Part shown: positions 6,425-57,624 of the stretch, in pieces
How positions within the stretch are numbered: the first letter of the stretch is position 1
Layout: every line of letters begins with the position of its first letter
Program-made: the position numbers and the translations under genes
Virus record (IMG/VR): IMGVR_UViG_3300022902_000006
Reading direction: 5' to 3' (one strand)
DNA length: 64,000 bases
Origin: a virus
Notes under the pieces: generated by a model
Database searches by the model: none
Told to the model about the DNA's origin: nothing
What the model saw: only the letters and a program-made list of their open reading frames with translations

Positions 6425-6640
6425 ATGCGCGGCATCGAATACACGTACCCCCTTGCGCTAGGTGACTTCCTACAAGACCATGGAGACGGGACCTACTCCA
6501 CTTTACGTGGTAAATACCAAGGTGCCCTGACCAACGCTCCTACTGGATACATCCGAAACTTCGTACTAAAAAAATGGGACCTCACTGACCAAGAACGCCG
6601 CGTGCTAACGCGGTACAGCGTAAAGGATAAAGAAAAATGA
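6425..6640 (+). CDS. hypothetical protein
   Basis: Short ORF in operon. Confidence 0.5.
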   Translation: MRGIEYTYPLALGDFLQDHGDGTYSTLRGKYQGALTNAPTGYIRNFVLKKWDLTDQERRVLTRYSVKDKEK

Positions 6641-7230
6641 GTGGAAACCAAGATGGCGACAACCCCTCAGTCAAGATGTCCGCTGGCCCCGGAGATATGT
6701 TCTCCAGCATGCTCGCTGCAGGAGCAGAACGGGATGTGGCCAAAGAGGCGCTTGATGCTGCACTTCGTCGGCTCCCCACACACTACACTGAAGAAGTTGA
6801 TGTGGGTTGCACGGAATTCGGCCAACTGGACCGCAACAACAAAAACACGTTGGGGATGTGCATCTCAAACGACGTGGCCTGCGTACGCCCCCTTGGGGGT
6901 GATGGCCCTGATACTCCACCCAAAACCCTCGTGTGGGTGCCCGTCACAAAGATCGAACTGGAAAGGCGCGAGTGGCCTATTGGTACCCATGGTCCCACGG
7001 ACACAGCAGAGAACCTCGCCGACTCCGTCATTGCAGCCATCACCCACGATGTACTCCAGGTGCTGAACCCCACCTTGAGTAACCTGGAGTTCCGCGTCCT
7101 GCGCATCAGCGTCATCAACGAAACGACGACCCTGTGCTTCTCCAGAGAGGCCGATATCCTCGTCCTCGATGGGGCCATCACCGCCCTCATCTTCACCGTA
7201 TCTGAACCAGAGGTTGACAGCGCGGGGTAA
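6637..7230 (+). CDS. hypothetical protein
   Basis: ATGA overlap; followed by terminator. Confidence 0.65.
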   Translation: MSGNQDGDNPSVKMSAGPGDMFSSMLAAGAERDVAKEALDAALRRLPTHYTEEVDVGCTEFGQLDRNNKNTLGMCISNDVACVRPLGGDGPDTPPKTLVWVPVTKIELERREWPIGTHGPTDTAENLADSVIAAITHDVLQVLNPTLSNLEFRVLRISVINETTTLCFSREADILVLDGAITALIFTVSEPEVDSAG

Positions 7231-7288
7231 GTACCCCTACACTTTACGTCAGCCGTGGTAATAACTCTCCTGTTGGTCAGTAAAAGGT

Positions 7289-7320
7289 AAAGGGCCTGGA
7301 AACGGGCCTTTTGCTTTTTG
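7289..7320 (+). terminator. intrinsic terminator
   Basis: AGGGCC-loop-GGCCTT stem followed by T-rich tract. Confidence 0.6.
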
Positions 7321-7383
7321 GGGTGCACAATGCGTAGCTCCATTGCTCCCATACGCCGCTTCAATAAACAAAACACCTCCCCA

Positions 7384-7893
7384 ATGGACGCACTTCTAGC
7401 GTACTTCGAAGAGCTGCGTGTGCATTGCCGCAACAACGTACAGGGACACATGCTCAACGCGCCTGCAAGTGCGTCTACGGCCACCAGTTGGAAGGTATCG
7501 GTGACTTCCAGCATCATCACTGTGAACGGCGTAACCAAATCCCTCCACAACAGCGGCTCCGACTACATCGTCTACTCAAGTGGCACCCCCATCATAGGGG
7601 CTAACCAATCTTGCGTCGCAGCGTTCATCGCGTATATCAACAGCGGCAGCATCACCCACACCGCCATGCTTGGCACCGCTGCGACTACCGGGGTTGCCCC
7701 CACCGCTGCACAGATCACTTCCGCCCTAACCGAACGCCCCTGGATCCGCCTTGGAGAAACAACACTCCATGATACTGGTGGTGTCATCACGCAGAGCTAC
7801 GACAGCGCTCGCCGCCCCATCCTCGGTGTCACTGTAGCGCCAACGATTGGGGACTGCTCCTTCATTGACCGCCTCAAAGACGCTGGCTTATAA
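7384..7893 (+). CDS. putative structural protein
   Basis: T/S/A/G-rich beta-type composition. Confidence 0.6.
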   Translation: MDALLAYFEELRVHCRNNVQGHMLNAPASASTATSWKVSVTSSIITVNGVTKSLHNSGSDYIVYSSGTPIIGANQSCVAAFIAYINSGSITHTAMLGTAATTGVAPTAAQITSALTERPWIRLGETTLHDTGGVITQSYDSARRPILGVTVAPTIGDCSFIDRLKDAGL

Positions 7894-7900
7894 TCCACAC

Positions 7901-8467: not shown

Positions 8468-8472
8468 GATCT

Positions 8473-8501
8473 AAAAACTCCATGTCGTCCTGACCATGGA
8501 G
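8473..8501 (-). terminator. intrinsic terminator (possibly bidirectional)
   Basis: CTCCATG/CATGGAG stem followed by TTTTT on - strand. Confidence 0.7.
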
Positions 8502-9208: not shown

Positions 9209-9218
9209 GTAGTACCCC

Positions 9219-21276: not shown

Positions 21277-22113
21277 TTATTGATCTCCCTCACCCCAGAA
21301 TTCACCCACAACACGATCCATATCCTCCAGTACACAAGAAGAGAACCACTCCCCGTGCAAACGGAACGCGTCAAAAATGGTATGTAAGTATCGCTCCAGT
21401 GCTTTAGGTCCCGTGTACTGTTTGACCACCGTAAGTTCTACAGAGCTATGCGTCCGCAACGTCGACAGGCGCTTCTTGAGTTGTGTCGTGTACCCAATCT
21501 TAACATTGCCCACTTCTGAAGCCTGGACGACGTAAATTGTTTGTGTATCCGCAGAGTTCTCAGGGAAGCCGAAACACAACAAGTGGTTACACACCCGCTG
21601 ATGAAAACGCTCCCCCTTCCCAAAGGCTTTCAAAATATCCAAAAGCAGTTCTTTAATGAAGTGTACGCCCGAAGCCTCTATGACATCCAATGTCACACAG
21701 GTCCCATGATCAGAGGTACATCTCACATGGCTAACGCGCCCGGTGGCCAGGTGAATAATGGCACTATCCAATTCCGTGAGTTCAATGACGTCGTTGCACA
21801 CATCACAACCCACACGTAGTGACCTGCGCATTGGATACTTAGTCCAGTATTCCAGCCACGCCTTCTGTAACGCGTCCACAACTTGCTCGGATTGTTGTGA
21901 CTTCCGCCGTACGTACTTATACCAATCCCAGTAACTCCACCCCCAACACGCACCTTCCTCCACAGCAGCGTCACGCTGCGCATCACTCGCCAAATCTCCG
22001 ACAACATCATCACGCGTCAGACTACCTAGCAACCACGGAAGGAAGGAGCCACCTTCGGCCTTAGCGCGCACCCTGGCGTTACGTAGTGCGGTCTTACTAC
22101 GGCAAGTACCCAA
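21277..22113 (-). CDS. YozE-like SAM domain fused to GIY-YIG (T5orf172-type) domain
   Basis: N-term FLPWL...DDVVGDLASDA...AWLEY; C-term IYVVQ...VKIGYT...RL..L...E..LH..F...RLHGEWF. Confidence 0.7.
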   Translation of the reverse strand: MGTCRSKTALRNARVRAKAEGGSFLPWLLGSLTRDDVVGDLASDAQRDAAVEEGACWGWSYWDWYKYVRRKSQQSEQVVDALQKAWLEYWTKYPMRRSLRVGCDVCNDVIELTELDSAIIHLATGRVSHVRCTSDHGTCVTLDVIEASGVHFIKELLLDILKAFGKGERFHQRVCNHLLCFGFPENSADTQTIYVVQASEVGNVKIGYTTQLKKRLSTLRTHSSVELTVVKQYTGPKALERYLHTIFDAFRLHGEWFSSCVLEDMDRVVGEFWGEGDQ

Positions 22114-22552
22114 GCAACCGTCCGATGCCCCGCGCCATCGCGTTGGAGGGCTCCTTGATGTCGTGCATCATCGTCCTGTTGTACATGTACATGGCGAGGT
22201 CTTCCCAGAAGTCCAGGCCACTATGCATCGAGACCACGCTGTCTGCGTCCACGCCGAGCATCGACCCGATGAACAGCTTCTCAGCGTCTTCCATGGGGCC
22301 GTAGTAGGTCTGGTCCCCGGAGTCGAACAGTTCAACCTCTTGCACTTGTATGTCCGCGATATCTGCGGGCAAATAGCTGCTCGCGTCCATAGCTGTGCGT
22401 AGCGTACTCGCGTCCATGGTACTGGGGCCGTCCTTGATGAGAAACTCAACAACGAAGCGGCGGCGTACCGATTTACCGCGTAAAGGCAGTGCTGCAGTAC
22501 GGAACGGAGGACTCAGCGGGGCACTTTCTGGTTCATCGAGGATGCTACCCAT
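22097..22552 (-). CDS. hypothetical protein
   Basis: TGATG overlap. Confidence 0.6.
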   Translation of the reverse strand: MGSILDEPESAPLSPPFRTAALPLRGKSVRRRFVVEFLIKDGPSTMDASTLRTAMDASSYLPADIADIQVQEVELFDSGDQTYYGPMEDAEKLFIGSMLGVDADSVVSMHSGLDFWEDLAMYMYNRTMMHDIKEPSNAMARGIGRLLGYLP

Positions 22553-24212: not shown

Positions 24213-24310
24213 ACTTCCTCCTTGGGCAAAAAAAGAGATAAATGAAACCCACTACTAAGCTAGTAGGGGCCTCTGTGTTTTCTTATACCTGATATGTATT
24301 GGGATTTCGG

Positions 24311-24385
24311 TCGGGGTGAGAGGATTTGAACCTCCGACATCCTGCTCCCAAAGCAGGCGCGCTGACCAGACTGCGCTACACCCCG
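24311..24385 (-). tRNA. tRNA-Pro (TGG)
   Basis: CGGGGTG/CACCCCG acceptor, loop TT-TGG-GA, canonical T-arm. Confidence 0.95.
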
Positions 24386-26421: not shown

Positions 26422-27134
26422 TCACTCATCACGACTCTCCATGTCCAACCCCTTAGCCTCAAACACATCGTACAGTGCGTCGTGCAGCGCCTTAGCCTCG
26501 GGGGATACATCGCTATTCATCGGCGTGTGCTCCAGGATCTCCATGAGCAGAGCCTGGTCCTTCTCATCGATGGCGTCGACGACATCGAGCAGCTTCTTCT
26601 TCACCTCGGGCTCAGGCATCTCAACTTCCTCTGGTTCGGGTTCAGGTTCGGGTGGTGGAGGTGGGAGCGGGGGCTCAGGTTCCGACTCTATTGCAAACTC
26701 TTCCAAGAGAGCGATGGCACCTTTCAACTTCAACAACGCACGCACCTCCACTTGCCGTATGCGCTCCCTGGTCAAGTTGAGGATCTCCCCTACTTCCTCA
26801 AGTGTAAGACCCTCCCCATCAACACCACCTGCAACAACCAGAACACAAGTGTGCGCCATTTCATGGACTTCCAGATGTGGGAAGTTCAGCTTGAGGGAGC
26901 CGGTATTGGGATTCACGTCCGTGTAGATGTGGTATTTGCACGAGACATAAGGGCACGGTCCCGTCTTGTCACACTCGCCCCACGTACGCGGTTTACGCGG
27001 TAAATTAAAAGCACTGAGTGCAGCACCCTCCAGTAGCTCTGCACGTGATAGCTTTTTTGCGGCAAGGTCTTAGCGCGTGGCCCCCGCGTCTCACGACGAT
27101 GCTGCCGTGTAGGGTGTTTGCGTTCGCTATCCAC
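26422..27134 (-). CDS. sigma70 region-4 HTH protein, frame broken near 27053-27066
   Basis: [29 protein letters not shown]; its frame extends up through [21 protein letters not shown] to a TAA, and the GTG start at 27134 is in another frame. Confidence 0.75.
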
Positions 27135-33898: not shown

Positions 33899-33973
33899 CA
33901 ACCCCAACGGGATTTGAACCCGTGTCACCGGCGTGAAAGGCCGGTGTCCTTGGCCATGCTAGACGATGGGGTC
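33899..33973 (-). tRNA. tRNA-Glu (TTC)
   Basis: GACCCCA/TGGGGTT acceptor, loop CT-TTC-AC, T-arm ACGGG-TTCAAAT-CCCGT. Confidence 0.9.
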
Positions 33974-36028: not shown

Positions 36029-36850
36029 CTACGTCTCCGGATGGTTGTACGGCTGATACGTCGCCGCGTAGTTCTTCGCCACAGGCAGCTCTTCGAACTG
36101 ACGCCATTCGCGCCACAAATCCTCAAGGAACCGCTGCAACATGTAACGCTTCGCCGCTTTGTCCCGGTGGCTTCCATTCATACCCCAGGGGGCGGGTCCA
36201 CCTGACCCACCGCAGTTGCGACACTCGTGTCCGTAGAATGTACCCTTGCCTTTGCAAGCCATGCAGATGGGGACCATGGTGGTCTCCTTCCGCTGCTTGT
36301 AGTTGTTGTAGTGTGTGACGTACGGCTCTGTGCCGTGCTGCAGGAACTGATTCGCGATGCGGTCTGAACGGCACTTGCGGTACGAGGATACCTGGGTAGC
36401 AGGGAGTGCACGCCCGTTGCGGGGTGCTACGCCCCACCAGGCCCACAGGGATGAGGGGTGTGGGGCCTTGCTAATATCGATCTCCCCAATCAGCGCAGCG
36501 CCGAGCGCCGGGCCAATCCCTTTGATGTCCCGCAACCAGTGCTGCCAGAACTCCTCTTCCTTGAGCGCCAGATGCATCCGTCGGTACAGGTCCTTCTCCG
36601 ACACATTCGCAACGTGGATCATCTCCCGCGCGAAGACCGGCGTACGCCCCTTACCCACCACCTTGAGCAGCTCGATACGACACTGCTGGGTGTGGTGGTA
36701 GACACGCGCCACCTGAGCCAGCTCCGAGTAAATGCTCTTCTTGACCACCACCTTGCGCACTCTGGTTGCCCTCTTCTTGGGCGCCACCTTCTTCTTGGGC
36801 CTCATGGCATTTAGGGCCTCCTCTGCCCTCGCTCTTCCGGCGTCAAACAA
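36029..36850 (-). CDS. IS110/IS116-family C-terminal (Transposase_20-like) domain protein with inserted zinc finger
   Basis: IKGIGPALGAALIGEI, SLWAWWGVAP, CMAC..CRNC, H..AKRYM...FL..LW. Confidence 0.65.
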   Translation of the reverse strand: MFDAGRARAEEALNAMRPKKKVAPKKRATRVRKVVVKKSIYSELAQVARVYHHTQQCRIELLKVVGKGRTPVFAREMIHVANVSEKDLYRRMHLALKEEEFWQHWLRDIKGIGPALGAALIGEIDISKAPHPSSLWAWWGVAPRNGRALPATQVSSYRKCRSDRIANQFLQHGTEPYVTHYNNYKQRKETTMVPICMACKGKGTFYGHECRNCGGSGGPAPWGMNGSHRDKAAKRYMLQRFLEDLWREWRQFEELPVAKNYAATYQPYNHPET

Positions 36851-37986
36851 CTCGCCGGGTGCTCCATCTCATCATACTGCTTGTCCGAGATTCTTCCGTC
36901 TTTGCACAAGCCGTCTGTGAAATCGTTGAACGCCTCGCACCGTGCTACGTAGTCAATCTTTCTATCCTGCTCGTAGGTGTCACGCACACCCGGAAGTACG
37001 CACTGCGTGAACTCGCGAACCACCTGGGTCCACGTCATGTAACGACTCACATCCCTCCTACAAAGAAAACGTGCACCGCCCCCGTATCCTGCCGTCCCCG
37101 CAGGGACGACGAGTTGGACATAAGGGGCAGTGCACCGATGGGATAACGACCTCCGCGCGATCCGTGATGCGTCGCCGGGGGTTGGGAGTGGCGCGCAGAC
37201 TCTTCCGGAGATACGGGCTAATGTCAGCCCCGCACAAAGCCTACGGCCCCCACGTGTTAGGGCTCGCTGGGTCGACGCTCGCCGGTCTTGGAGCGTCGCC
37301 TTTGAGTGGCGAGTTACTGCGGTACTACTTCTCCTCCTCGTTGTGATGTCGTGTAAAGGTGATTCCGGACTCCCCGGATACCACCCGCCGCTCCCACCAC
37401 ACCCGCCGAAGCAGGTGCAGTGAGGGCGGTCTTGTCTTGTTGGTCGTCGCACCCGCTACGCGGGGGCCTCCTCCGTCTCCAGCGGACCCTCGAACGGCGT
37501 CTCCACGACCTCCTCCTCCTCCTTGGGCGGCACGCTGGTGGGGTACATCCACAGGGACGGCGCCTCCAGGTCGCGGTCGCCGAAAACGACGCAGGGGATG
37601 TTCTCGTCCGGGTCCGCGTCGCCCGTGGGGATGACGACACCGTGACCCGAAGCAGCGGACACCGTGCCAGCGGCAGCGAGAGACACACCACGCTCGGCCT
37701 TGGTGGAGGCGAAGTCCAGCTTCACCGACGCCCATGCGCACGCCTTGCCCATCATGCGGAAAACGAACCCCAGGGCGGCGAGCACCATCGCCGGGACCCC
37801 GAAGACGAAGGCACCCATCATGCACAGCACGACCGCCACGACGGCCACGATGACCAGCACCATGCTGAAGGAGTACGCCAGGCCACGCAGGGCCACAAAC
37901 TTCGCACTGAGTTCTTTCTTCATAATTCCCTCCGTAGGAATGTGGTTGAAGAATGGCTGCTCATCTTCTCGCGGTAACGAGAACAC
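36811..37986 (-). other. short hypothetical CDS including a membrane protein (37456-37923)
   Basis: Two hydrophobic helices in the 37456 ORF. Confidence 0.5.
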
Positions 37987-38084
37987 TTATTACGGTGTGG
38001 GGTCGAGTTGATGAGCGAATTAAGACACTCGACCTTACTTTCTTGTACCTGTTTGGGTGGTTATTTTTGAACGATTTACGGCAT

Positions 38085-38111
38085 AAAAAAACGGGGGTTA
38101 CGGCCCCCGTT
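38085..38111 (-). terminator. intrinsic terminator
   Basis: AACGGGGG/CCCCCGTT stem followed by T-tract on - strand, downstream of 38134 gene. Confidence 0.7.
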
Positions 38112-38133: not shown

Positions 38134-38535
38134 CTAATGCACCTGCACCCAGCGCCAGGGCTGAGGCGTGGTGTAGTCACGCGGGTCGAACGCCCCGAAG
38201 ATGGGCTCATCCATGTTCACGCGACGACGCAACCCGTACCGCGTGGACGAGAAGGACTGCGTGTCCTCCAGGATGACGCTGTCAATGCCCAGCAGCACCT
38301 CGGCCATGAAGAAAAGGGACCGGGTATTGCGCACGTCGCTCTCGCGCCGCTCGTACAGCTTGTGCAACAGCGGAACCATGTCTGGGTTCACCAGCAGGAC
38401 CTGGGTGAGCGCCTGCTCAACCACAGCACCCTTCGCCGCCAGGTAACGGTTGTCCGATGCCCCAACAACCTTGAACCACGCCTGCTCAGCGCCATACTGG
38501 ATGATATCCAGAACCAACTCTGCTACATCTTTCAT
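38134..38535 (-). CDS. hypothetical protein
   Basis: GAGGAG RBS; bracketed by promoter-like element and terminator. Confidence 0.7.
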   Translation of the reverse strand: MKDVAELVLDIIQYGAEQAWFKVVGASDNRYLAAKGAVVEQALTQVLLVNPDMVPLLHKLYERRESDVRNTRSLFFMAEVLLGIDSVILEDTQSFSSTRYGLRRRVNMDEPIFGAFDPRDYTTPQPWRWVQVH

Positions 38536-39034
38536 GATGTATTGCTCCTCTCTCCGGATGAGAGATCATTACGCCTCGTCACTCTATAAGGGCACGGTCG
38601 ATAAGACGAGACGTGTTCAATGGTTGAACACTCGACCGCATATTCTTGTACCTGTTTGAGTATCATATTTTTAGGATCTAAAAAGCGGCGTGGGAGCGCC
38701 GCAGTGATGCCTTATGTAATGGGGCCAGAGACCAACTTCGAGGTGCAAGCTCGAAGTTGGTCTCAGCAGGCAGTAATAGCATCTCCCTCACCCCGGAGAT
38801 GCCGAGCACTGCCGAAGGTCTAATACCGACGTTGCGCCGGTCGCTCTAGGAGCACGCATCACTTGTTGGTACTTACTTACTACAAACAACCACGATACTT
38901 GAATCTCCCGCTCCTGCTGGTGTGGGACAGTTTTGTGGGGTAGTACGTAGGCCACCCCACAAAGTCTCGTGACCATCCCGCCAGGCTTGGTGGGGTGGGT
39001 AAGAACGCCCCACGGCGCAGTATGTGCCTAATAC

Positions 39035-40456
39035 GTGGGCGTAGCACCCACACGCCGCCAGGACGTACTATCGTGGTGATTCCTTCAGTTGACGATCCAG
39101 GTGGGGTTCACGAGGTGGGGACTAACCTCGTGAGCTTCACCCAGTCGCCGTAGTGCCCGGTACACGACCTTCGGTCGTAGTCCGGGTCAGGCATTTGTTA
39201 CTACTCCCTGCGAGCGTGTCGCTCGCCGTGCATGCTAGTACACACGAATCACCGGTCTCACTTCACTATCCCTCAGAGGGTTCTTTTAATAAGGCGTGCG
39301 CCGCGATGTTTGTGGAAGGGATGTCGCGTAGGCATGGGTGTAGTCACTTTGTCAAAGTGTCTGTACCCAGGGCGTCCACGTGACATCACTCCACGTGTAT
39401 CAGCGAAGCTACCCCGTGGGCGGTGCGCCCACCACTTACGTCGTGCGTTGAGACCTAGTTTTGAACTAACGCGCTTACTTGTCTGTCACCGGAGATTGAC
39501 CTATTCGGCTGAGGTGTTGGTGGAGTCCGGCACGAGCCGGACGCCCAACATATTCAGCGATGTCGCCCTTTTCGTTTATATGGGTGTAGCACCCACCACG
39601 TATCAACAACCACTAAGCGCGAGTTGCTAGAGCTAGAGAATGTGGCGAATCACTTCGTCGCGCCCTCTGCTTCGTGGGGTGTGACATCGGCGCGCGGCAC
39701 CTTGCGCGACAATGTCGCATATCGTGAACCGGAGTTCAGTACCGTATGTGGGCGTTGCACCCACGCCACGTCCTGTGAACCAACTACACGCTTTCGTATG
39801 TACCTTATTCGCTTATTGGTGAGGAGGGAGCCCTCCTCGTCGTTAAAGGTGCAAATACACACCCGCCGAACAACCCTCGCATGTATTTGTACCGTAACGC
39901 GGGGGAGGTGCGTACGCCCGAACAACTCACCGAGGTTTCTACCACTCTACGGTGTCGTTTCAACACCTGTGAATTCGTTGACCGAATAAGGAAACGCTCA
40001 CTAACAATTTTGACAGGGCGGAGTCGCGTAGGCTTCGGGAGACTCAGTGTTCCGAAGTCTAGGTGGCTCCGCACAAAGATGTTCTGGGTTCGGATACGGT
40101 GGAGGAGCCTCGCTTTATCGGCGCCGCCTTAGCAAGCTGATTGAGGCGACGATATCCGAAGCTCCACCGCGTATCGTGTACCTGGCGACGTTTCGTCACC
40201 ACCACGTCTGTGACGTGTACTGAGCGTTCAGGTTGTTGCTTTGGATTAGGACCCCAGTGGAGAGCGAATCGCAAGTTCGGATCACGTGATGACAGTGCTT
40301 TTGAGCACAGACTCAAAGGGATCCGTGCGCAGCGAGTCGCGATATCTTGATGAATGATCTAACTGCACGTCCAAGACGTAGTCGTCGGACTGCACCAGAG
40401 GGAAGTTAGATCAGACGGCAAGATCTCCTGAGCAATCACGTGGGCGTAGCACCCAC
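39035..40456. repeat. five copies of 17-bp quasi-palindrome GTGGGYG-N3-CRCCCAC in a 2.5-kb non-coding block
   Basis: Copies at 39035, 39416, 39580, 39748, 40440. Confidence 0.8.
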
Positions 40457-41063
40457 ACGCGCGCAGCGTACCAACAACCAGTTTACGGCGTAAATCGTAC
40501 CTTATCCTCACTAGGGGCTGTCATCGACCAAGATGACCTATTGCTGAGTGTGGGACGCGCTAGGCGAAGCCTGAGCGGCGTACCGCATGTAGCGTGTGCT
40601 GCTTACTACTTGTGGTGGCGGTGCGCCACCTATGTAACCGACGTCGGTTAACGACTGAGGACAAAACACTCGCTTGAGTCTCTAAAAGGTGTTGTTCAAG
40701 CACGGCAATTGAAGGGGTCAAAACACGCTTTGCACCGCCGCAGCGGGGCAGTGTTTTGGGAACTACAACTGTCGGGGATGGATATAACACCTCTAACAGT
40801 AATGGTGGTGTTGCACCACCGCCTGACCTGATCAGGTTTACCGAGTGTGTACTGTGAAGCGCTGACTTCATTTTACGATAGAAACAGATAGTGGGATGTC
40901 ACACGACATCCGCTTTGGTGTGGCGGTCATCTCCGGGTGTCCCCGGGGACTGGCCTACCGCTACGGCGGAGACACTACTGTGTGGACTGCTCTTATCCCG
41001 CGCATCCTTCCGCTGACGTTACGTCAGCTCCCTGGGAACCTGGCCAGGCTTTCTCAGCGCTAC

Positions 41064-41792: not shown

Positions 41793-42477
41793 GCCACTCC
41801 TCCCTGAGTTTGTCGTATTCCTTTCGCATGCTGTGAAACCGTCGACCTCCATCAGGTCTCTGGTTGTCTTTAGGGTCCGACAATATACGCCAACCCGCGT
41901 CGTCCTCCGTTCCACGCCCACAGAACCACGCCTGGCACGTAATGGGCCTCGTAGCGTAGATGGAGCAGCGGCAACCCTTGAGGAAGGGACAATCCCCGTC
42001 ATCGAAGTGCTTGAGGTACGTGTATGTGTTGGGGCGAAACACCCCAAAGCCCGACGCAAGGTTAGGCGTCTCCTTCTCCCCGGGCTCTGGTGCCATGGAA
42101 GCGTTGCGTATGAGCCCCCGGAAACGCCACAACCTGTCCCGAGGATACACGCACACCTCGAACACACGGCAGCAGCGAGCGTCGCACGTCGCACACACCT
42201 CGTGGGATGTCTTGTTGTCGTGGGAGAATGCACTGTGGGGCCAGCGGTCATCAGGGCCAATCTCGTGGTCGTCGAAGTCGGACTCCACGATTGTTTTTAG
42301 CCTCTCCACAAGCTCTGGCTCTTCAGCCTCCACCTCTTGGACGGCCTTAATGCACTCTTGCAGCTCCACCATCTCGTCTGGGGTGATGACGCCACGAGGG
42401 GTGATGGTGTCCTCTTCGCTAAGTGCTTGTTGCTCCCCCTTGAATGTTTTGAGAGACATGAAGACACCGTCAGCCAT
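41683..42477 (-). CDS. YkgJ/FliB-type Cys-cluster protein
   Basis: CATCDARCC...CPFL...CSIY..RP.TC..WFC. Confidence 0.85.
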   Translation of the reverse strand: MADGVFMSLKTFKGEQQALSEEDTITPRGVITPDEMVELQECIKAVQEVEAEEPELVERLKTIVESDFDDHEIGPDDRWPHSAFSHDNKTSHEVCATCDARCCRVFEVCVYPRDRLWRFRGLIRNASMAPEPGEKETPNLASGFGVFRPNTYTYLKHFDDGDCPFLKGCRCSIYATRPITCQAWFCGRGTEDDAGWRILSDPKDNQRPDGGRRFHSMRKEYDKLREEWRAQEDKEAEEEAEGLQEQKTDQARALRTLWRAEPTS

Positions 42478-44948: not shown

Positions 44949-47189
44949 ATGCGCGACCGTTGGTACGGTGTCACCCTCCCCGACGAGGATTACGTAAAGA
45001 TTACAAAGCTCAAGAAGTTATTGCGCTACGTAAAGAACAGCAAGAACACGCCGCTCACTGGGCGCTTCTACAACGACACAATGGGCATGATTTACTGGCC
45101 ACACGTCTTCGCAAACAAGCGATTTCTTGACTACTTCGCGGATATTGTGCTCCCCCGCAACCAGATGGAGGCCGAGGCACACAAGCTGTGTCCTGTGCAC
45201 CACGTCCGCAAGCACAACGACTTCATCACCTGGCTGCAGCAGCGCACGCGTATGTTCACAGAGCACCTGCTGGGCTCCCTGCTCGTCCCAGCGGCCACGC
45301 CCCCTGGCGTGGTATGCATGGAGTACGCGGCGGCTCACGGCGAGCCCAGCGAGCCCATGCACAATCGGGCCAACTACACCACGTTCCGGCGGCTCACCAT
45401 CACCGACAAGGCACTGGCACGTGTACTGCAGACTCCCGACACGCGGTACGAGCTGGCAGTGCATGAGTTACCAGACCCACTGCGCCTGATACACCACGCC
45501 TGGAAGGCGCTGACGCAGCGGGCCACCAACGCCTACGACCCCACGCAGGTGGGCATCGAGTACACCCACACCGGCTGCATGTTCATCAACTGGGATATCT
45601 TCCGCGTCTCCTCCCGCTGGCCCAAGGAGGTTGGCTGCTCGGCAGCGAGCGCCATGTTGGATATCGAAAAACTGTCCAGCTCCCACACCCTGCGCAATGG
45701 TATGGCCACCCGGGACCTGGACCCCACGGTGGACCGCATCGGGCGCTTCCGCACCCGGGTGTACAAGAGCGATTATGTGCGCCAGGCCATGTCCACCGAC
45801 CTGTTCGTGGCCCCCACCGCAGACGACAGCGACTACATCCCCTCCGCCACCGTCATCGACCCACTGTACCTGGTAAAGCGCCAGCATTTGTTCGATGGAA
45901 CCTGGCACTACCAGCAGCGCAGTAAGCAGCTCAACGCCAAGCGGCGTAGCCGGGTGTCCCGGGACTCACCGGAGGCTGAGGCCACCGCCACTACCAAGGT
46001 CTACTCCTTCATGTTCAAGCCGGTGGATCACCTCAAGGACATCATCACAGAGCACCAGCTCGCGCTGTGGTTTGACCCCAACCACGAGGAGCGTGTGTAC
46101 GGTATCCGACGCAAGAAGGCGATGCTCTTCACCCGCCCAGAGCTGCTCGGCCAGGCAAGGCAGGACTGCCCCGCAGAGGTGGAGGTGTGGCTGCGCGCCG
46201 TGGACTCCCTCAAGCTGGTGGAGTCGTACCGTGATGACGGTGCCGTGGGCAACATCCAGGAGCAGCTCCGCTCTGAGTTCTACAAGCAAGCTCGCCAAGA
46301 GCATCTCAACGAGATTGGTCCCCAGGTTCTGGAGCACTTCGTGAGCTACGAGCTGCTGTCCAAGGACGAACAGTACCAGGTGCGTGAAGCAGCGAAGCGC
46401 CTGCATCGGGACCGGAGCGGAGACGAAGGTGCTGTCCCTGGCCGGTGGTGGCTGGACAAGACCGCGCAGCTCGCCCGTGAGTTCGTCAAGGCAGATACCA
46501 TCCGGCGCATTGTCAATGTGACGCTGCCCGGCGAGCGGAGTGTTAGCACCCAACACTTCTACACCCCCGAGGCAATCAAGCTGTTTCAAACCTTCACCCA
46601 GGGAGCCATGGGTTCCCCTTCTGGGGACGTCGCACCCGACAGCCATATGGAGCGGGCGACCATGAACCAGCTTGCCCCGACGCCGTATCTGCTGGCGTGG
46701 ACCCGCTTCTGCCTGGGTATGCAGGGCAAGGCCAACTCCTTCGCCATCAAGGAGGAGCACCAGCGTTGGACACCCGCAGAAGACATCGTCCTCGCACAGC
46801 ACATCCACATCAACCAACCGAGGATGTCCCGCACCCAGTGGGGCAAGCTGCTCGCGGCTCTGCCAGCACGCAATGAGTCTGCGTGCCGGTACCGCGCTCG
46901 TACGGTGAATCTGTTGCTCGCCAAGGGGCTGACCGCTGCTCAGCGAGCGAAGTATCGTATGGGCAATGTGGAGCTGAAGACGGACCAGGCGATGGCGCGC
47001 AAGACCATTTTCATCTACGGGTACCTGATGTACTACCAGCGGTCGGGCCGCAAGCTGTTGCGTACCTTGCCCGGTGTGCGCAATATCCTTAAATTGACAG
47101 GACCTCAGTTGGAGCGCTTGCCGCTGCCCACATCCTACGCCGGTGACTTCTTCTCCACGTTCGGTGAGGCGTCACCATCGTTCTCTTGA
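44949..47189 (+). CDS. 746-aa protein with C-terminal Myb/SANT-like helix-turn-helix
   Basis: RWTPAEDIVL...W..L...LPARNESACRYR. Confidence 0.75.
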   Translation: MRDRWYGVTLPDEDYVKITKLKKLLRYVKNSKNTPLTGRFYNDTMGMIYWPHVFANKRFLDYFADIVLPRNQMEAEAHKLCPVHHVRKHNDFITWLQQRTRMFTEHLLGSLLVPAATPPGVVCMEYAAAHGEPSEPMHNRANYTTFRRLTITDKALARVLQTPDTRYELAVHELPDPLRLIHHAWKALTQRATNAYDPTQVGIEYTHTGCMFINWDIFRVSSRWPKEVGCSAASAMLDIEKLSSSHTLRNGMATRDLDPTVDRIGRFRTRVYKSDYVRQAMSTDLFVAPTADDSDYIPSATVIDPLYLVKRQHLFDGTWHYQQRSKQLNAKRRSRVSRDSPEAEATATTKVYSFMFKPVDHLKDIITEHQLALWFDPNHEERVYGIRRKKAMLFTRPELLGQARQDCPAEVEVWLRAVDSLKLVESYRDDGAVGNIQEQLRSEFYKQARQEHLNEIGPQVLEHFVSYELLSKDEQYQVREAAKRLHRDRSGDEGAVPGRWWLDKTAQLAREFVKADTIRRIVNVTLPGERSVSTQHFYTPEAIKLFQTFTQGAMGSPSGDVAPDSHMERATMNQLAPTPYLLAWTRFCLGMQGKANSFAIKEEHQRWTPAEDIVLAQHIHINQPRMSRTQWGKLLAALPARNESACRYRARTVNLLLAKGLTAAQRAKYRMGNVELKTDQAMARKTIFIYGYLMYYQRSGRKLLRTLPGVRNILKLTGPQLERLPLPTSYAGDFFSTFGEASPSFS

Positions 47190-48163: not shown

Positions 48164-48337
48164 GCCACTACTTTGCCATGACCATCAGCCCTTCAATCAA
48201 ACCACCCGCCGACAGGTTCCCCGGCGGCTTCGGCCCGAGAGGCAACCCCGCCGGGAGGTTTGAGCGTCCTCGGATTTCACTGTCCCTGGGCGCTTTTTTA
48301 TATCCTTCGTTGGGTGCCCTGATTTACGGCGTAAACT

Positions 48338-48757
48338 CTATTTGGGTGGCACCTTCCGGAAGACCACCGGGAGCCAGTGCGGTTTTTTGTAGCCCTTCGC
48401 AGGAGGCTTCTGCACGATTGGAAAGTTTAACATCCCTCCATCCACCATGTAGACGAGTGTCGTCGTGGGGTGGGATTCCAAACCGGGCGCGTCGCACAGC
48501 GCACTTGTAACTTCCAGAAACTGAGCACTAACACCTGCCCAGAAAATGATGTTGGGATCTTTTTCCGAGACCCTAACGTAGTCACCGGGGACTTCAAAAC
48601 TGTCTTCGAACAAGTACATCAACTCCTGGTACGAAACGTTATCCAATGTGCGTACGTACAGCAGCGCCATCTCCTGATACTTCTCCTCTTTTTGCAGGGC
48701 GCGTAGTTCTTCGCGTATCTCCAGCGGGGCACGGTCTATACCACTAGCGCGGTTCAC
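48338..48757 (-). CDS. hypothetical phage protein
   Basis: GTGA overlap; NIIFW.G.S.EF...YM.DGG.L..P...WLPV. Confidence 0.65.
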   Translation of the reverse strand: MNRASGIDRAPLEIREELRALQKEEKYQEMALLYVRTLDNVSYQELMYLFEDSFEVPGDYVRVSEKDPNIIFWAGVSAQFLEVTSALCDAPGLESHPTTTLVYMVDGGMLNFPIVQKPPAKGYKKPHWLPVVFRKVPPK

Positions 48758-51197: not shown

Positions 51198-52524
51198 GTC
51201 ACAGATATGAAGCCTCTGTGCTGGCGTGGGAGACATTGGCCGTTGTCGCCAGTACAAGGCCCTGGCGCTGGCGTAACGACGTGTATCGCTCGTCACAAAT
51301 ACAAAGCCCCTGTGCTGGCGTAGCGTCAATCGTTTCAAGTCACAAATACTAAGCCTTTGTGCTGGCATAATGGTATCTGGCTTAGGGGCACAAATACAAA
51401 GCCTCTGCGCTGGCGTTGCCACCTATGTTGCACGTCATCAGTATAAAGCCCTGACGCTGGCCCTTAGATACGTTCAGCGTTGGGGGCACAGATATCAAGC
51501 CTCTGCGCTGGCATAAGTGCACTCCAGACCTGGGTCACGAATACGAAGCCTCCGTGTTGGCATTATCCAGGTACGTCCATCGGCGTCAGTACAAGGCCCT
51601 GACGCGGGCGTAGGAGAGAAGTCTGGATCACAGATACAAAACCTCTGCGCGGGTGTAAAGACGACTGCGAGGTCGGCGCAGAAACAAAGCCTCTGCGCTG
51701 GCGTGAAGAAACTATACAAGGCGCTACAGATACGAAGCCTCTGTATCGGCGTCAAACCAACCCATGTGCTTATCACGAGTATGAGGCCCCCGTGCTGGCA
51801 TGGAAGTAGAATCCTAGATCAAGGCGGTAGTACAAAGCCCCATCGCTGGCATTATTGATCAGGCAATTCTATCGCAGATACCAAGCCTCCGCGCTGGCGT
51901 TATCGATTTCCTCAATGGCGCAGATACAACGCCCCTGCGCTGGCACAGCATGTTCATGATGGCGGTCACAGATACAAAGCCTCTGCGCTGGCGTATACAA
52001 AGCGAAGTACGTTGTGGGTACGAAGCCCCCGCGCTGGCACAGACGTTCAAGAAGGCGTCGTCAGTACAAAGCCCCAACGTTGGTGTAGGAGAGAAGCCTG
52101 AGTCACAGATACGAAGCCTCTGTGTTGGCGCAACAGCAGGGCGGTTAATGTCGTCGGTACAACGCCCCGACGCGGGCACGGTTCCGTTTGGGGGTAGGTC
52201 GTCGGTACAACGCCCCAACGCGGGCACTGAACAAGTTGGAATTCGGTCACAGATACGAAGCCTCTGCGCTGGCATAGGGAGCTATGTCTATCGTTGTCAG
52301 TACAAAGCCCTGGCGCGGGCGTAATGCTCATGGTGGCGGTCACAGATACAAAGCCACCGTGCTGGCGTATAACATAGCGTTCATCATAGGCGCAGATACG
52401 AAGCCTTCGCGCTGGCACAGATTAGTGTAGTAGTTTCACAGGCTGCTTGTCACAGATACCAAGCCTCTGTGCGGGCACCACCAGGAGTCCCACATGGGCA
52501 CAAGTACAAAGCCCTCATGCTGGC
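51198..52524 (-). CRISPR. CRISPR array: 28 degenerate 28-nt repeats (30 nt with a conserved RY), 27 spacers
   Basis: - strand consensus (RY)GCCAG-CRCAGA-GGCTTYGTA-TCTGYG-AC; spacers 17-23 nt (one 32); starts 4 nt after the cas stop codon. Confidence 0.9.
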
Positions 52525-52528
52525 GTTG

Positions 52529-54295
52529 TTATGCATTTTTCGTGTGGCGCTTTGCCCACTTCGCTTGGCGGGGTGCGGTATTTACGGCGTAATCCTTGAC
52601 CTTGGTGGGCACAGCTTCCTTAGCCCCCTGCTGGTGTTCGTCCCAGCGAAGCAGCAGGTTGTGCGCTGCGTTAGCGTCCTGATCCCAGTTTGCCTGGCAC
52701 TCGCTGCATGTGTGCATCACCTCTTTTGAGGCGTCCCAGGGTTCTTCCGGGTGGTCGCCACACACCGCACAATCCTGTGTGGTCATCGCTGCATTCACCT
52801 CAGCGACGGCGCCGAGACGCATCGCAAACCCATTGATGAGGTTGCTACGCAGTACCGAACACGCGGCGTCCCGTTGGTACAACCGGGCAGAAGCGATCTC
52901 TCCCTTATCAGACTCGGGGAGGACGTGCCGTTGCATTACGCTCAAATCGAACTGTTCCAGGACAAGAGTGTGGTACTTCCGCGAGAGGCGAGCGGCGATG
53001 TTACGGTACTGGTCCTTGCGGCGAGCGAGGCTCTTGTCACGTTGATTTGCTTCCCAGGACAACAGGTGCTTATCCTGCTTACGCCAGTCTTCCAAGCGCG
53101 GGTAGGCCAGGGTGTCACCTGCGAAGCGGGAGTCCCGCCACGTACGTGCAAGCGCCGCTAGGCGTGCCGTTGAACGCCAAGCATGCAACGTCGTTGCAGC
53201 CTCAATCAACCAGTCAGGGAGCGACGCCCCTTGTTTCGTTTGGCGGCGCATCCACGCAGCCAGCCAATCACGCTCAATGTTGAAGTTCTTGTCACGTGTG
53301 CTGCGCAGGTCCTCGACCTTGCGGAACCCAGAGCGGACAGCCCCCTCAAGGAGGATCTCCTCCTCATATCCTTGGTTGTCACGGAAGTACGCGACACGGA
53401 GGAGTCCACTGGGACGCACACGCCACCCAATGTCCACGGCCACAGTGCCAGTGCCACATGTTTCGCGGCGCCAGCCATCAGGGAGCGACAATGTAAAGTG
53501 GACGCTCCAGCGATCCTTGCCCGCCAGGCGTTCACGCAGAACTTTGACATCCTTGATCGTGGCCACCCGAGGCAGAGGACGGTGCAGGATGAGCGGCCAG
53601 GTTGCCCAGATGGGCGTCGTTTTGCCCTGCACGGTACCAACACGCATCTTCAACTCAGAGCGCTTCGGGTTCGAACCGACGAAGATGCGCAGAAGTGTAC
53701 TGTCACAGGCTAGTGCCTCAAAACTACTCAACCCTTTTTGTATCTGTACAGCGACGGCACCATGCCCCGTCCAACGCCGAAAGTGGGGGTCCACAAACGC
53801 AGCTTTGCGTGCTGCATCCACGGCCTTCTCAATAATTAGATATGTACCCCAGTAGCAACCACAGATTGCGCGTTCTTTCCGGATAGTAGCCTGCGCACTT
53901 TCATTCACCTTGTTGATGGCTGTCTGTACCGCCGTGTCATCCTTGAGTGCAGCTTTAGCCTTGCGCAGTTCCGCACGCACTGTCTTGAGCTGCTGCCGTG
54001 CAATCTTCACACGCTTCCGTTGCTCCTTGGTGGAAGAACGTGAACGTGATGCTCTGTGTGTCGCCCGGAGATCAGCGATTGCAGCATCAACGACTGCTTT
54101 TTTCGCTGTCGCTTCTTCTTCGAGAGGTTCTACCGTCGGATGGACACCCATGATGGCGCGTACCTTCTTACGGCGGTCACGTTCAATCTCGATGAGTTTG
54201 TTGTAATACTGATGTGCCAAATGTATCTGGTCGGATACGAGATCCACGTTTTCACACGGGGGTCTAAGCCCGTAGCGATACACTAGAATGGGCAT
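52529..54295 (-). CDS. cas12m: miniature type V effector of the Cas12m (V-U1) clade, 588 aa
   Basis: GAGGAG RBS; YRYGL..P...LAH, YWGTY, RRW.G.G...VQ, LHRPLP, RuvC-I VDIGWR, RuvC-II LVLEQ, two CxxC, RuvC-III DQDANAA; adjacent array. Confidence 0.8.
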   Translation of the reverse strand: MPILVYRYGLRPPCENVDLVSDQIHLAHQYYNKLIEIERDRRKKVRAIMGVHPTVEPLEEEATAKKAVVDAAIADLRATHRASRSRSSTKEQRKRVKIARQQLKTVRAELRKAKAALKDDTAVQTAINKVNESAQATIRKERAICGCYWGTYLIIEKAVDAARKAAFVDPHFRRWTGHGAVAVQIQKGLSSFEALACDSTLLRIFVGSNPKRSELKMRVGTVQGKTTPIWATWPLILHRPLPRVATIKDVKVLRERLAGKDRWSVHFTLSLPDGWRRETCGTGTVAVDIGWRVRPSGLLRVAYFRDNQGYEEEILLEGAVRSGFRKVEDLRSTRDKNFNIERDWLAAWMRRQTKQGASLPDWLIEAATTLHAWRSTARLAALARTWRDSRFAGDTLAYPRLEDWRKQDKHLLSWEANQRDKSLARRKDQYRNIAARLSRKYHTLVLEQFDLSVMQRHVLPESDKGEIASARLYQRDAACSVLRSNLINGFAMRLGAVAEVNAAMTTQDCAVCGDHPEEPWDASKEVMHTCSECQANWDQDANAAHNLLLRWDEHQQGAKEAVPTKVKDYAVNTAPRQAKWAKRHTKNA

Positions 54296-55216: not shown

Positions 55217-55590
55217 CCGATCTTCTTCCGGTGATCCTGCGCAGCGGCTTGTTGTAGTTCCTCCGACACACACGTGGAACACTTGCCCAACGGGATGTCG
55301 GTACCTGTCATTGGGTCCGTGACGTACGCAATAGTGTTTCTCGATGTAACAGCCTCGGACACTTGTTCGTGCACAAAATTGGACTCTGGGGGGCTGCGTT
55401 TCTCACAAAGGAATTCCACTATACGTTTGGGTTGTGGGATGACACGCACACACACTGTTTCCGCCACAGGGGGATTCTCAATGATGATGAGGCGGGAACA
55501 TTTAGCGCACAGACACACGTAGCTGCTGTTTATTTTGAACAGCGCCCCGGACATGCACGCAACCACGAAAGGACAGCGCTTACACTTCAT
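55213..55590 (-). CDS. Cys-rich paralogue 9
   Basis: MKCKRCPFVVAC...LCAKC...CEKR...DP...CSTC. Confidence 0.85.
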   Translation of the reverse strand: MKCKRCPFVVACMSGALFKINSSYVCLCAKCSRLIIIENPPVAETVCVRVIPQPKRIVEFLCEKRSPPESNFVHEQVSEAVTSRNTIAYVTDPMTGTDIPLGKCSTCVSEELQQAAAQDHRKKIG

Positions 55591-56041
55591 CGAGGTGCTC
55601 CACGGCGTATACCTCCTTGTCCCCAATGGCTTGGGGCACGGCGCCTTTGCATTCCTCACATTTGGTAATCTTGATGTGGCTCGTACCTCCCGGCGACATC
55701 GGGTCTATGGGCTCACCCAAGGCTCCTGATGATAATTTATCCAGGTTGAAGACGTCTACCTGGGGGATGTCGTAGATATCCAGGAACGCACGGTCCAGCT
55801 TCTCACAGTGGAGGTATCGACGCGCGGCAACGGCTACTTCTGTTTGCCATACACGCAGAGGGTTGTCGGGTGGTGACCCGGGAGCAGGGTCCACGTCGAT
55901 GAGTTCGTAGGATGTGACCTGCAACCGCGCGCACTCACGACAAAGGAGGATTGTGATGCTGCTCCCTATCACTGCGCCCACCTCTGATTGGAGCTTTCCC
56001 GCCATGCACAGCAGCACATAAGGACACCGGCTACACTTCAC
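55580..56041 (-). CDS. Cys-rich paralogue 8
   Basis: (V)KCSRCPYVLLC...LCREC...CEK...DP...CEEC. Confidence 0.85.
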   Translation of the reverse strand: MKCSRCPYVLLCMAGKLQSEVGAVIGSSITILLCRECARLQVTSYELIDVDPAPGSPPDNPLRVWQTEVAVAARRYLHCEKLDRAFLDIYDIPQVDVFNLDKLSSGALGEPIDPMSPGGTSHIKITKCEECKGAVPQAIGDKEVYAVEHLDEV

Positions 56042-56585
56042 GCCCGTCCTTTCCTTTGATCCCCCAGGGGTGCACCAGCGCTTCCATTGCCCCACTGTCC
56101 CGCGCTCGCTTGAACGCCAGCTCGTCGTCCAGGTTCACGATGCGGTAGGCGCTGAAGGCACCATGCCTGCGCTCCTCACAATTACAGCGGTTGCAAACCT
56201 GCATGCGGAGAACTGTTCCACCTACGGGGTCCACGACGTTCATTGTGATGGGCTCCGCCAAGGAAGACATGTGGTCTCCCGGGTCACCCACGGTAGATGT
56301 GGCAATACCTTTGCCTTCCGCAGTGTTCCGTACCCGATCAACAATATCCGCGTAGCTTCGCTTCTCACAGATGAGGTAGGTCAGCGTCCCATCGTAGGGC
56401 AACACACCATGAAACTGCCGATAGAATTCAACAGTGTCAGCGGGTTCATTAGGCCCCGGACCAGCCTTGGCGTGCACAAGCTCAAGGCGCCGACACCGAT
56501 AGCAGAGCGACGCAGTGCGGTCCTTGGAGTGCAGGAGCGTTCCACCGAGGCACGGCAAGACGAGAGGGCACTCTTTACATTTCAT
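56031..56585 (-). CDS. Cys-rich paralogue 7
   Basis: MKCKECPLVLPC...LCYRC...CEKR...DP...CNRC. Confidence 0.85.
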   Translation of the reverse strand: MKCKECPLVLPCLGGTLLHSKDRTASLCYRCRRLELVHAKAGPGPNEPADTVEFYRQFHGVLPYDGTLTYLICEKRSYADIVDRVRNTAEGKGIATSTVGDPGDHMSSLAEPITMNVVDPVGGTVLRMQVCNRCNCEERRHGAFSAYRIVNLDDELAFKRARDSGAMEALVHPWGIKGKDGREV

Positions 56586-57067
56586 GGCGTGTCTCCCGTG
56601 GGGACGATGATCTTTCGCAGCTCACTCTCCTCCCGCAGTCTCTCTCGGATGAGGTTGCCCCCAGCCTGCCCCACCGCTTCAAAGATGGCCACCGTCTGCT
56701 TCGCCATCATCTCTGTGATTGCAGGGTCAGTGAAGGTGACCTTCCGGGAGTCCAGGTCCTCGTGCAGCTTAATGCGGTAAGGGAGAACACGGCGGTCCTC
56801 GGGGTCACACATGGTGCAGCCCGAGACGAGCAGTGGGCCACCGTCCACAGGGTCCACGAGCTGAACACCACGACGTACCTCCGGAGCGGCGCGGTACTGG
56901 AACTGCAGCACGTCAAGGTTCCTCTTCTCACACACGAAGTGCAAGCTGCGGGGCTCCTGCACGAGTAGTTCGAGACGCCCACACTGAGGACATAGGCGCA
57001 TAACGATGGCGCTGTGGAAGGTACCCTGCATGCATGGTAGGGCGACGGGGCAGTGTTTGCATTTCAT
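56582..57067 (-). CDS. Cys-rich paralogue 6
   Basis: MKCKHCPVALPC...LCPQC...CEKR...DP...CTMC. Confidence 0.85.
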   Translation of the reverse strand: MKCKHCPVALPCMQGTFHSAIVMRLCPQCGRLELLVQEPRSLHFVCEKRNLDVLQFQYRAAPEVRRGVQLVDPVDGGPLLVSGCTMCDPEDRRVLPYRIKLHEDLDSRKVTFTDPAITEMMAKQTVAIFEAVGQAGGNLIRERLREESELRKIIVPTGDTP

Positions 57068-57624
57068 GATTTCTTCTCTTTGTCACCAAGGATGTACTCT
57101 GGTGGCACACCCGTACCTCGTATCATGAGATTGAGCGTAGCATCGTATCGCTCACGCATGGTGTTTGTCTTACGTACTTGGCGTAGTGTTTTTAGGAGCA
57201 CACTTCTTTTCTTAGCCATCTCAGCATCGGGGTCCTTTGCTGAAAAGGTGATTCGCTGCATGTCGAGGTCCTCGTACATTTCTACCACGTACAGATTGTG
57301 CCGAGGTCCGTCACACCGGATGCAAGCAGACACAGGCAGGAAACCGCCGGACACTGGGTCGACAACCTGAATGCCTCTTCCATCCTTGGGAGCATCAATA
57401 ATAGCTTGTTGCAATGTAAGCAGGTTCCTCTTCTCACACCGGAAGTACAGCGCGCGCTTTACGCGGTAAACTGGGCCGTTGAGAGCACCACGCGTTTTAA
57501 CGGGGAGCACCTCAAATAGCCCACATACTTGGCACAAGTTGATGATGACTGCGAAGGCGTGGTGATTGTCGAACCACACCCCCTGCATACACGGCAAGGC
57601 CAGGGGACAGTTTCCACACTTCAA
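57064..57624 (-). CDS. Cys-rich paralogue 5
   Basis: TTG start; KCGNCPLALPC...LCQVC...CEKR...DP...CIRC. Confidence 0.85.
   Translation of the reverse strand: MKCGNCPLALPCMQGVWFDNHHAFAVIINLCQVCGLFEVLPVKTRGALNGPVYRVKRALYFRCEKRNLLTLQQAIIDAPKDGRGIQVVDPVSGGFLPVSACIRCDGPRHNLYVVEMYEDLDMQRITFSAKDPDAEMAKKRSVLLKTLRQVRKTNTMRERYDATLNLMIRGTGVPPEYILGDKEKKS

Follow-up and report, generated by a model that had tools for sequence, protein, structure and literature searches.

An evenly spaced palindrome in a 180-kb phage genome as a candidate loading site of an orphan ParB

Which factor reads a short palindrome that recurs through the genome of a large uncultured marine phage, both inside genes and between them? 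The question was raised by a stretch of 64,000 nucleotides, here called the window, which corresponds to bases 107239-171238 of a 180,179-bp IMG/VR phage record (IMGVR_UViG_3300022902_000006) and contains dispersed copies of the 13-letter pattern TTTACNNNGTAAA, that is TTTAC-N3-GTAAA. The whole phage genome, labelled G000, has a GC content of 58% and a CheckV completeness of 100%. Judged from sequence comparisons of sites and proteins, the palindrome is probably (at roughly 0.6) a loading site of the parS/OB type for the phage's own orphan ParB. The eight perfect copies that an initial annotation of this DNA had reported in the window were all present, compared with 0.01 copies expected from dinucleotide-preserving shuffles. 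None of 100 such shuffles matched this number. The whole genome held 28 perfect and 10 one-mismatch copies, giving 38 sites, and 28 of its 95 TTTAC pentamers sat within TTTAC-N3-GTAAA.

Only a spacer of three nucleotides was observed. A scan of the G000 genome for TTTAC-Nk-GTAAA with k=0-2 or 4-7 returned no copies. The ten arm positions were invariant, and G or C was favoured at both outer centre positions (TTTAC-SNS-GTAAA). Within the window the centre was limited to GTG, GCG, CGC and GGC, as annotated initially. The flanks showed a weak symmetric preference at positions -1/+1 only, with A...T in G000 and C...G in the relative G008, and no information further out. The enrichment persisted under codon-preserving shuffling, the check named in the initial annotation. 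With synonymous codons permuted within genes 300 times, a mean of 0.21 intragenic copies and a maximum of two were obtained, versus 17 observed. The copies in the window are given below by position; gene positions were taken from a crude codon-usage gene caller of our own, and single starts may be wrong.

6502..6514: perfect site TTTACGTGGTAAA, inside the 71-amino-acid open reading frame (ORF) 6425-6640 (+), read T-L-R-G-K
11774..11786: perfect site TTTACGCGGTAAA, inside the coding sequence (CDS) 11296-11898 (-), read L-Y-R-V-K
16298..16310: perfect site TTTACCGCGTAAA, intergenic, ~190 nt upstream of a minus-strand tRNA-Gln/tRNA-Ala pair
22472..22484: perfect site TTTACCGCGTAAA, inside CDS 22097-22552 (-), 68 nt from the CDS start
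26992..27004: perfect site TTTACGCGGTAAA, intergenic, 75 nt upstream of the Sigma70_r4 gene 26422-26916 (-)
40482..40494: perfect site TTTACGGCGTAAA, in an ORF-free stretch at ~38.5-41.1 kb
48323..48335: perfect site TTTACGGCGTAAA, intergenic, at 2 nt from where gene 48338-48757 (-) stops
57458..57470: perfect site TTTACGCGGTAAA, inside CDS 57064-57588 (-), read V-Y-R-V-K
2728..2740: one-mismatch site GTTACGGCGTAAA, intergenic, central in an 8.0-kb gap that separates two perfect sites
38075..38087: one-mismatch site TTTACGGCATAAA, within a 13.5-kb gap; the least certain member, because its right arm also provides the T-tail for a minus-strand terminator
45865..45877: one-mismatch site TGTACCTGGTAAA, inside the gene of a 746-amino-acid protein
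52581..52593: one-mismatch site TTTACGGCGTAAT, towards the 3' end of the Cas12f/TnpB-like gene 52529-54247 (-), central in a 9.1-kb gap
60129..60141: one-mismatch site TTTACTTTGTAAT, in an 8.3-kb gap
60296-60308: one-mismatch site TGTACCTTGTAAA, in the same 8.3-kb gap as the site at 60129

The gene calls placed four perfect copies (6502, 11774, 22472 and 57458) inside coding sequences and the other four in non-coding DNA, instead of the six copies in coding sequences counted initially. The one-mismatch copies annotated at 38075 and 52581 were real, and those at 2728, 45865, 60129 and 60296 were added. Copies had also been assigned to a methyltransferase gene and a cas12 gene. No methyltransferase was found at any site, and the Cas12f/TnpB-like gene held the one-mismatch copy at 52581 only. 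The protein encoded by this gene carries a Cas12f1-like TNB domain (PF07282, E 5.5e-9).

Relatives of the phage were reached by alignment of PolA homologues, and 15 of them were read whole or to the end of the record. PolA of G000 (DNA polymerase I; genome 43172-46081, -) is fused to a family-4 uracil-DNA glycosylase (PF03167 + PF00476), and this fusion is kept across the phage group. A tree of nine core proteins placed clade A (G000, G008) beside clade B (G011, G016) and clade C (G013, G017, G019, G020). G001-G007 were placed in clade A by PolA and ParB similarity. Opposite clades A-C, the tree showed a grade of G023, G025, G010, G015 and G018, followed by the group of G014, G012 and G009. 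A nucleotide search against cultured phages gave no match, and no cultured relative or host was found. Protein matches to cultured phages were distant, with 23-25% identity for PolA and 31-38% over half the length for ParB. The sequencing runs matching the window were all seawater runs available as contigs, one of them a small RNA run; the populations compared were essentially identical to it, differing once in 20 kb. When all 5-Nk-5 palindromes were scanned de novo, TTTAC-N3-GTAAA ranked first in clades A and B (21-28 copies) and, within clade C, in G017 and G020 (5-6 copies), two of its four genomes. Altogether, the genomes of clades A, B and C held 1-28 perfect copies and 13-38 copies with at most one mismatch. 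In the complete genome G011, the same one-mismatch site GTTACCGCGTAAA was present in both direct terminal repeats, at positions 81 and 179240.

The spacing of the sites was even. Gaps between perfect sites had a coefficient of variation (CV) of 0.63, 0.39, 0.67 and 0.59 in G000 and three relatives, compared with ~0.94 for random placement, and gaps below 2.5 kb were nearly absent in these genomes. The 10 one-mismatch copies of G000, which differed mostly at the outermost arm position, sat in the largest gaps, with a median distance of 3.5 kb to a perfect site versus 1.7 kb for random positions (P=0.005). The same gap-filling was detected in G008, G011 and G016; across the four genomes the median was 3.5-6.3 kb versus 1.7-2.5 kb at random (P<=0.03 each). 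As an example, the 22-kb gap at genome 3.3-25.3 kb is divided by one-mismatch copies at 9788 and 18316. Taken together, the 38 sites of G000 showed a mean gap of 4.7 kb with a CV of 0.44.

Regular spacing over a whole genome would also suit marks for DNA transactions, such as periodic sequence-specific nicks as in phage T5 or packaging signals; base modification and recombination signals belong to the same group of explanations. The centre triplet could hint at a polarity of this kind. On the + strand of G000, GGC occurred eight times (including window 40482 and 48323) and GCC not at all, independent of gene strand, and the ratio was 4:0 in G008, despite most G008 genes being inverted relative to G000. 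This polarity was absent in clade B (G011, G016), however, and the palindromic arms argue for a symmetric binder and against a strand-specific nickase. No Tet/JBP dioxygenase was found in G000, and no enzyme of the kinds named tracked the motif in the gene profile described below. Marks for DNA transactions were regarded as highly improbable.

Selection on the DNA was visible where sites lie within genes. Intragenic sites fell in conserved genes whose homologues align straight through, and most relatives were without the site at the equivalent place. Rare codons served these sites, with TTA representing 2.1% of Leu codons, and the peptides LRGK, LRRK, IYGVN and LYRVK recurred at them. The G008 homologue of the ORF 6425-6640 has LLRGK at the matching place and DNA without the site; that of CDS 11296-11898 aligns across the place of the site and is also without it. 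In the conserved gene 36789-37799, G000 reads ATT TAC GGC GTA AAT versus GTC TAC GGC GTA CCC in G017. At the site at genome 82924, which is common to G000 and G008, the protein reads GLRGK or PLRGK versus GANGR in all other relatives; residues were altered here to accommodate the site. G008, G011 and G016 have a site within the primase gene, ~1.9 kb after its start. In G000, where this one is missing, the adjoining PolA and nuclease genes contain sites instead. Positions therefore turn over while the spacing is kept. What selection maintains is most likely that sites exist and how they are spaced, not their place relative to particular genes, and the palindromes very probably form a selected grid of protein-binding sites. 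That a dimeric protein with parS/matS-like logic uses the site had been proposed from the outset. This part is favoured by the invariant arms, the lack of flank conservation beyond +/-1, the even spacing, the intragenic copies forced into proteins and the co-variation with ParB type reported below. The binder suggested with it, and the promoter or operator association at 16298 and 38075, were not supported.

A candidate for the binding protein was found outside the window. G000 encodes a single ParB_N protein, 315 amino acids in length, at G000:C1:52535-53482 on the minus strand. The N-terminal domain matched PF02195 (E 5e-15), with AGERRWRAAK aligning to GERRYRA of Thermus Spo0J, and the helix-turn-helix (HTH) matched PF17762 (HTH_ParB, E 2e-11). 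A hmmscan against all of Pfam yielded ParB_N and HTH_ParB only. The closest solved relatives by sequence were Spo0J (3e-20), Noc and Caulobacter ParB, with KorB being weaker (1.8e-7). The AlphaFold model had a pLDDT of 84, and its top Foldseek matches were ParB-CTP, Noc and ParB-parS structures (E 5e-14 to 1e-11). A homodimer was predicted via the C-terminal helices 246-315, with an ipSAE of 0.48 versus 0.00 for the best of three controls; among solved structures, 20 of 30 homodimers and one of 23 single chains attain this ipSAE mark. The dimer runs agreed in at least 77% of contacts, with a pLDDT of at least 70. The dimer result may partly reflect likeness, because ParB dimers have already been solved.

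Other features set the protein apart from a partition system. The C-terminal 70 residues could be assigned to no family and did not match the Pfam family of ParB C-termini, and a ParA-interacting motif of the LG[KR]GL type (as defined in PMC12704722) was not seen at the aligned N-terminus. No ParA was detected in G000, with no match to PF13614 or PF01656 at E<=1 and positive controls in 14 of 14 genomes. The protein is therefore an orphan ParB and not part of a ParABS system, and ParA-driven segregation is unlikely. The KorB DNA-binding domain PF08535 and MatP (PF06303) were also without a match in G000. A subclass of phage ParBs, the 5mYOX-activating ParBs, activates thymine dioxygenases, is without a DNA-binding domain and needs the dioxygenase as a partner (PMC13229309); membership of the present protein in this subclass was rejected on these grounds. 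The convergent neighbour of the ParB gene, at genome 51702-52538 (+), encodes a sigma-70 region 4 protein (phrog_351, RNA polymerase sigma factor) and was core in 12 of 12 relatives compared. A second sigma-70 region 4 protein of G000 is encoded at window 26422-26916 (-).

Across 16 genomes, the distribution of ParB types followed that of the palindromes. A canonical ParB (types A, B and C) is encoded by every genome of clades A-C, at ~24-41% identity to the G000 ParB. G023, G025 and G010, which are basal in the other branch, encode another ParB type, and each carries a one-letter variant palindrome of the same geometry:

G010 (type-E ParB): TTCAC-N3-GTGAA, 7 copies, 4 of them intragenic
G025: asymmetric hybrid TTTAC-N3-GTGAA, 7 copies (e.g. 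at 16051, 40060, 53960, 69679 and 93427), neither symmetric form being present
G023: TTCC-N3-GGAA, 18 copies in 72 kb, all intragenic

The ParB of G010 was detected by a hidden Markov model only. The asymmetric hybrid site of G025 is odd for a homodimeric binder. G018, G009, G012 and G014 encode only a very divergent ParB-like protein with the motif GRSRVRAA or GRGRVRKA, and no ParB-like protein was found in G015. These five genomes held 0-2 copies of any palindrome form, and no dispersed intragenic palindrome was found in lineages without a canonical ParB. When all 220 G000 proteins were profiled, ParB alone occurred in each of the palindrome-bearing genomes while going undetected by tblastn in the five genomes without. 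A retron-type reverse transcriptase, its neighbour and a pyrophosphatase tracked clades A-C only. A first co-occurrence count had been based on ParB_N alone, by which 13 of 13 genomes with at least three sites had ParB and nine genomes without ParB had 0-2 sites. This count was too simple, because four of the 'ParB-less' genomes encode the divergent ParB-like protein together with a related intergenic motif, and the argument was therefore rebuilt on the tree and the site variants.

Several observations weigh against ParB as the protein that reads the palindrome. Clade C bears ParB with few perfect sites (1-6, and 13-29 copies at up to one mismatch), and its spacing showed weaker evenness with a CV of 0.64-0.73. 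On the tree, the loss of the canonical ParB and the loss of the dispersed palindrome were probably one evolutionary event; the association is therefore partly phylogenetic, and suggestive rather than decisive. A related motif, gTTTAY-N3-RTAAAc, was present with 2-7 copies per genome in G015, G018, G010, G009, G012 and G014. It was nearly always intergenic, mostly 0-35 nt upstream of a start codon and sometimes just past a terminator (G018: 140886, 155641, 161291). The motif accompanied the type-E ParB (G010), the divergent ParB-like protein or no detectable ParB (G015), so that some palindromes of this family exist without a canonical ParB. It may represent a separate promoter- or operator-like element of the phage transcription system or of another factor. 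Most core proteins of these phages are without annotation, and an unrecognised binder with changed specificity is therefore conceivable. Finally, 12 of 28 perfect sites in G000 and 17 of 23 in G008 were intergenic, though non-coding DNA comprised only 13-17%, and these sites often overlapped a TAA stop or preceded the next start by a few bases. This excess fits a regulatory role too, and was read mainly as the cheapest placement for a site.

Some of these points would suit another dimeric DNA-binding protein, either an unannotated core phage protein or a host nucleoid protein or repressor, with ParB co-occurring by descent. Most conserved proteins have no family assignment from which such a protein could be recognised, relatives of the palindrome persist in G015, and ParB and palindrome may have been lost together. 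However, ParB was the sole identifiable sequence-specific dimeric HTH protein that tracked the palindrome across the clades, and the half-site changes exactly in those lineages in which the ParB type changes. Were the binder a host factor, one would not expect the half-site to vary among related phages in parallel with a gene that the phages themselves encode. The initial annotation had named the 746-amino-acid protein, described as Myb-like, as the binder. This protein had no Pfam match and homologues only in G008, and it was rejected because it is confined to the closest clade, while two other clades hold 21 sites each. The phage sigma factor was the only other recognisable DNA-binding core protein, and a perfect palindrome is not expected as its need. 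Altogether, a binder other than ParB appears unlikely.

The sites at gene junctions, and the mostly upstream position of the gTTTAY motif in relatives without a canonical ParB, also fit a transcription signal read by the phage's multisubunit RNA polymerase or sigma-like factor, be it a promoter, operator, stoperator, pause or termination signal. The phage has its own transcription machinery, with multisubunit RNA polymerase beta-like proteins (PHROG matches) encoded at genome 63944-68527 and 72204-73997, and the sigma factor is core in all relatives. At least one site, located where the helicase gene and its divergent neighbour at 60144 face away from each other, was kept from G000 to G011, G016 and G015. 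Against a transcription signal stand the perfect symmetry without asymmetric flanks and the location of 16 of 28 G000 sites inside conserved genes, some of them more than 1 kb from either end. Sites were not enriched at divergent or convergent strand-switch junctions. The even spacing and the filling of gaps by weak sites are not expected of promoters. The centre triplet showed no sense-strand bias (GGC/GCC, GCG/CGC) and no orientation with transcription. Promoter-like elements had been annotated beside 16298 and 38075, but a simple scan detected no sigma-70-like site at either of these two copies, leaving the link to a promoter or operator unsupported there. A hairpin of RNA or single-stranded DNA, or an intrinsic terminator, was rejected: the hairpin is too weak at -0.5 kcal/mol (-2.0 for the G008 form), no T-run follows, and the arms are without compensatory change. 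A transcription signal was considered improbable.

For the favoured reading, a loading site of ParB, a mechanism can be outlined from established ParB biology, in which ParB is loaded at parS as a CTP-dependent clamp and then slides. ParB dimers of the phage would bind each palindrome, close into a CTP-dependent clamp and slide away. From sites as close and even as the 4.7-kb grid, ParB would be loaded along the whole phage chromosome. ParB clamps serve chromosome and plasmid segregation, nucleoid occlusion and KorB-type silencing. In the phage, the role might be condensation or compartment formation, genome organisation, exclusion of host proteins or nucleases, transcription silencing or timing as with KorB, or help with packaging. 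It is possible, though tentative, that in this clade of large environmental phages an orphan ParB of the CTP type coats the entire genome, loading at ~20-40 sites spaced every ~5 kb, with a specificity that drifts stepwise along with ParB. If true, the coat would amount to chromatin or a condensate of the phage's own, by which its DNA is organised, shielded or globally timed. Selection on the sites would then be strong enough to rewrite proteins, with TTTAC, TTCAC, the asymmetric hybrid and TTCC as steps.

The layout was compared with known systems, of which KorB with its OB sites was the closest in layout. The core of the KorB site OB, TTTAGCGGCTAAA, is a 13-bp palindrome, and 12 OB sites are present on the 60-kb IncP-1 plasmid RK2, some promoter-proximal and others far from promoters or inside genes; KorB, a CTP clamp of the ParB family, slides outwards from OB and reaches promoters up to 1.5 kb away (PMC11790492). 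The phage pattern TTTAC-SNS-GTAAA shares the length and the TTTA...TAAA arms. Density is also alike at ~1 site per 5 kb (12 on 60 kb in RK2, ~38 on 180 kb in the phage), with sites dispersed inside and outside genes, which is a resemblance of layout and not membership. The phage ParB differs from KorB in being of the chromosomal Spo0J/Noc type without a KorB Pfam domain. Unlike RK2, the phage is without an IncC/ParA partner, and no KorA-like partner was identified; it is large, apparently lytic and has its own RNA polymerase. Its spacing is statistically even, and its sites are written into protein-coding sequence.

Chromosomal ParB recognises parS, TGTTNCACGTGAAACA, and Noc recognises the site NBS, ATTTCCCGGGAAAT. 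The phage ParB has the same architecture and fold, comprising a ParB_N domain with GERRxRA, the ParB HTH and a predicted C-terminal dimerisation. Its palindrome shares the T-rich outer arms of parS and NBS, and the variants of the relatives, TTCAC/GTGAA and TTTCC/GGAAA, contain the half-site cores of parS and NBS. Like Noc, the phage ParB is an orphan with many dispersed sites. The phage half-sites differ in being 3 bp apart, and their density is ~10x that of NBS. The phage ParB also differs from chromosomal ParB by the missing ParA and ParA-interacting motif and by a C-terminal domain outside the ParB C-terminal Pfam family.

Dispersed sites are also described for the linear plasmid-prophage N15, in which four palindromic sites, IR1-4, serve SopB with SopA (ParA) as its partner (as cited in PMC7205306). 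To the extent described there, N15 resembles the present phage as a phage genome with separated palindromic sites for its own ParB-family protein. It differs in the number of sites (only four, against ~38 evenly spaced ones here), in its ParA partner, which the present phage lacks, and in living as a plasmid-prophage that depends on partition, whereas no sign of a plasmid lifestyle was seen here. The site matS, GTGACRNYGTCAC, organises the enterobacterial Ter macrodomain via MatP. It shares the 5-N3-5 geometry of a 13-bp palindrome and the many dispersed copies organising a DNA domain; the phage has no MatP and another half-site, and its sites span the whole replicon. Stoperators of cluster A mycobacteriophages (e.g. 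L5) are 13-bp sites that are asymmetric, oriented with transcription and bound by the immunity repressor. Some 25-30 of these short protein-binding sites are spread across a phage genome, some inside genes, which is similar to the present distribution, whereas the sites described here are palindromic, without gene orientation and evenly spaced.

Orphan ParBs are common in phages, with largely unknown roles (PMC12704722). No description of an even grid of sites covering the whole genome was found for a phage ParB in the literature searched. The present case joins an orphan phage ParB to a candidate set of sites and to a quantitative rule, an even spacing of ~5 kb. This spacing is of the same order as the sliding reach of KorB of up to 1.5 kb (PMC11790492). 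The natural series of specificity variants would offer a compact system for the evolution of ParB and its sites and for a DNA motif overriding coding constraint. The function of the ParB becomes testable in vitro without culture of the host.

Minor observations concern other parts of the window. Contigs from RNA libraries aligned at window 38320-39784 and 41860-42020, including the ORF-free stretch, which suggests transcription, with carry-over of DNA being possible. Metatranscriptome contigs aligned at window 51967-52340, in the stretch 51198-52524 next to the Cas12f1-like gene. The protein encoded at window 36029-36805 (-) matched the IS110-family transposase domain (PF02371, E 5e-6) and, weakly, a DnaJ-type zinc finger. 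Six tRNA genes (Thr, Leu, Ala, Gln, Pro and Glu) were present at window 9219-9446, 15896-16112, 24309-24385 and 33898-33973, two of them being called long with 80-87 nt.

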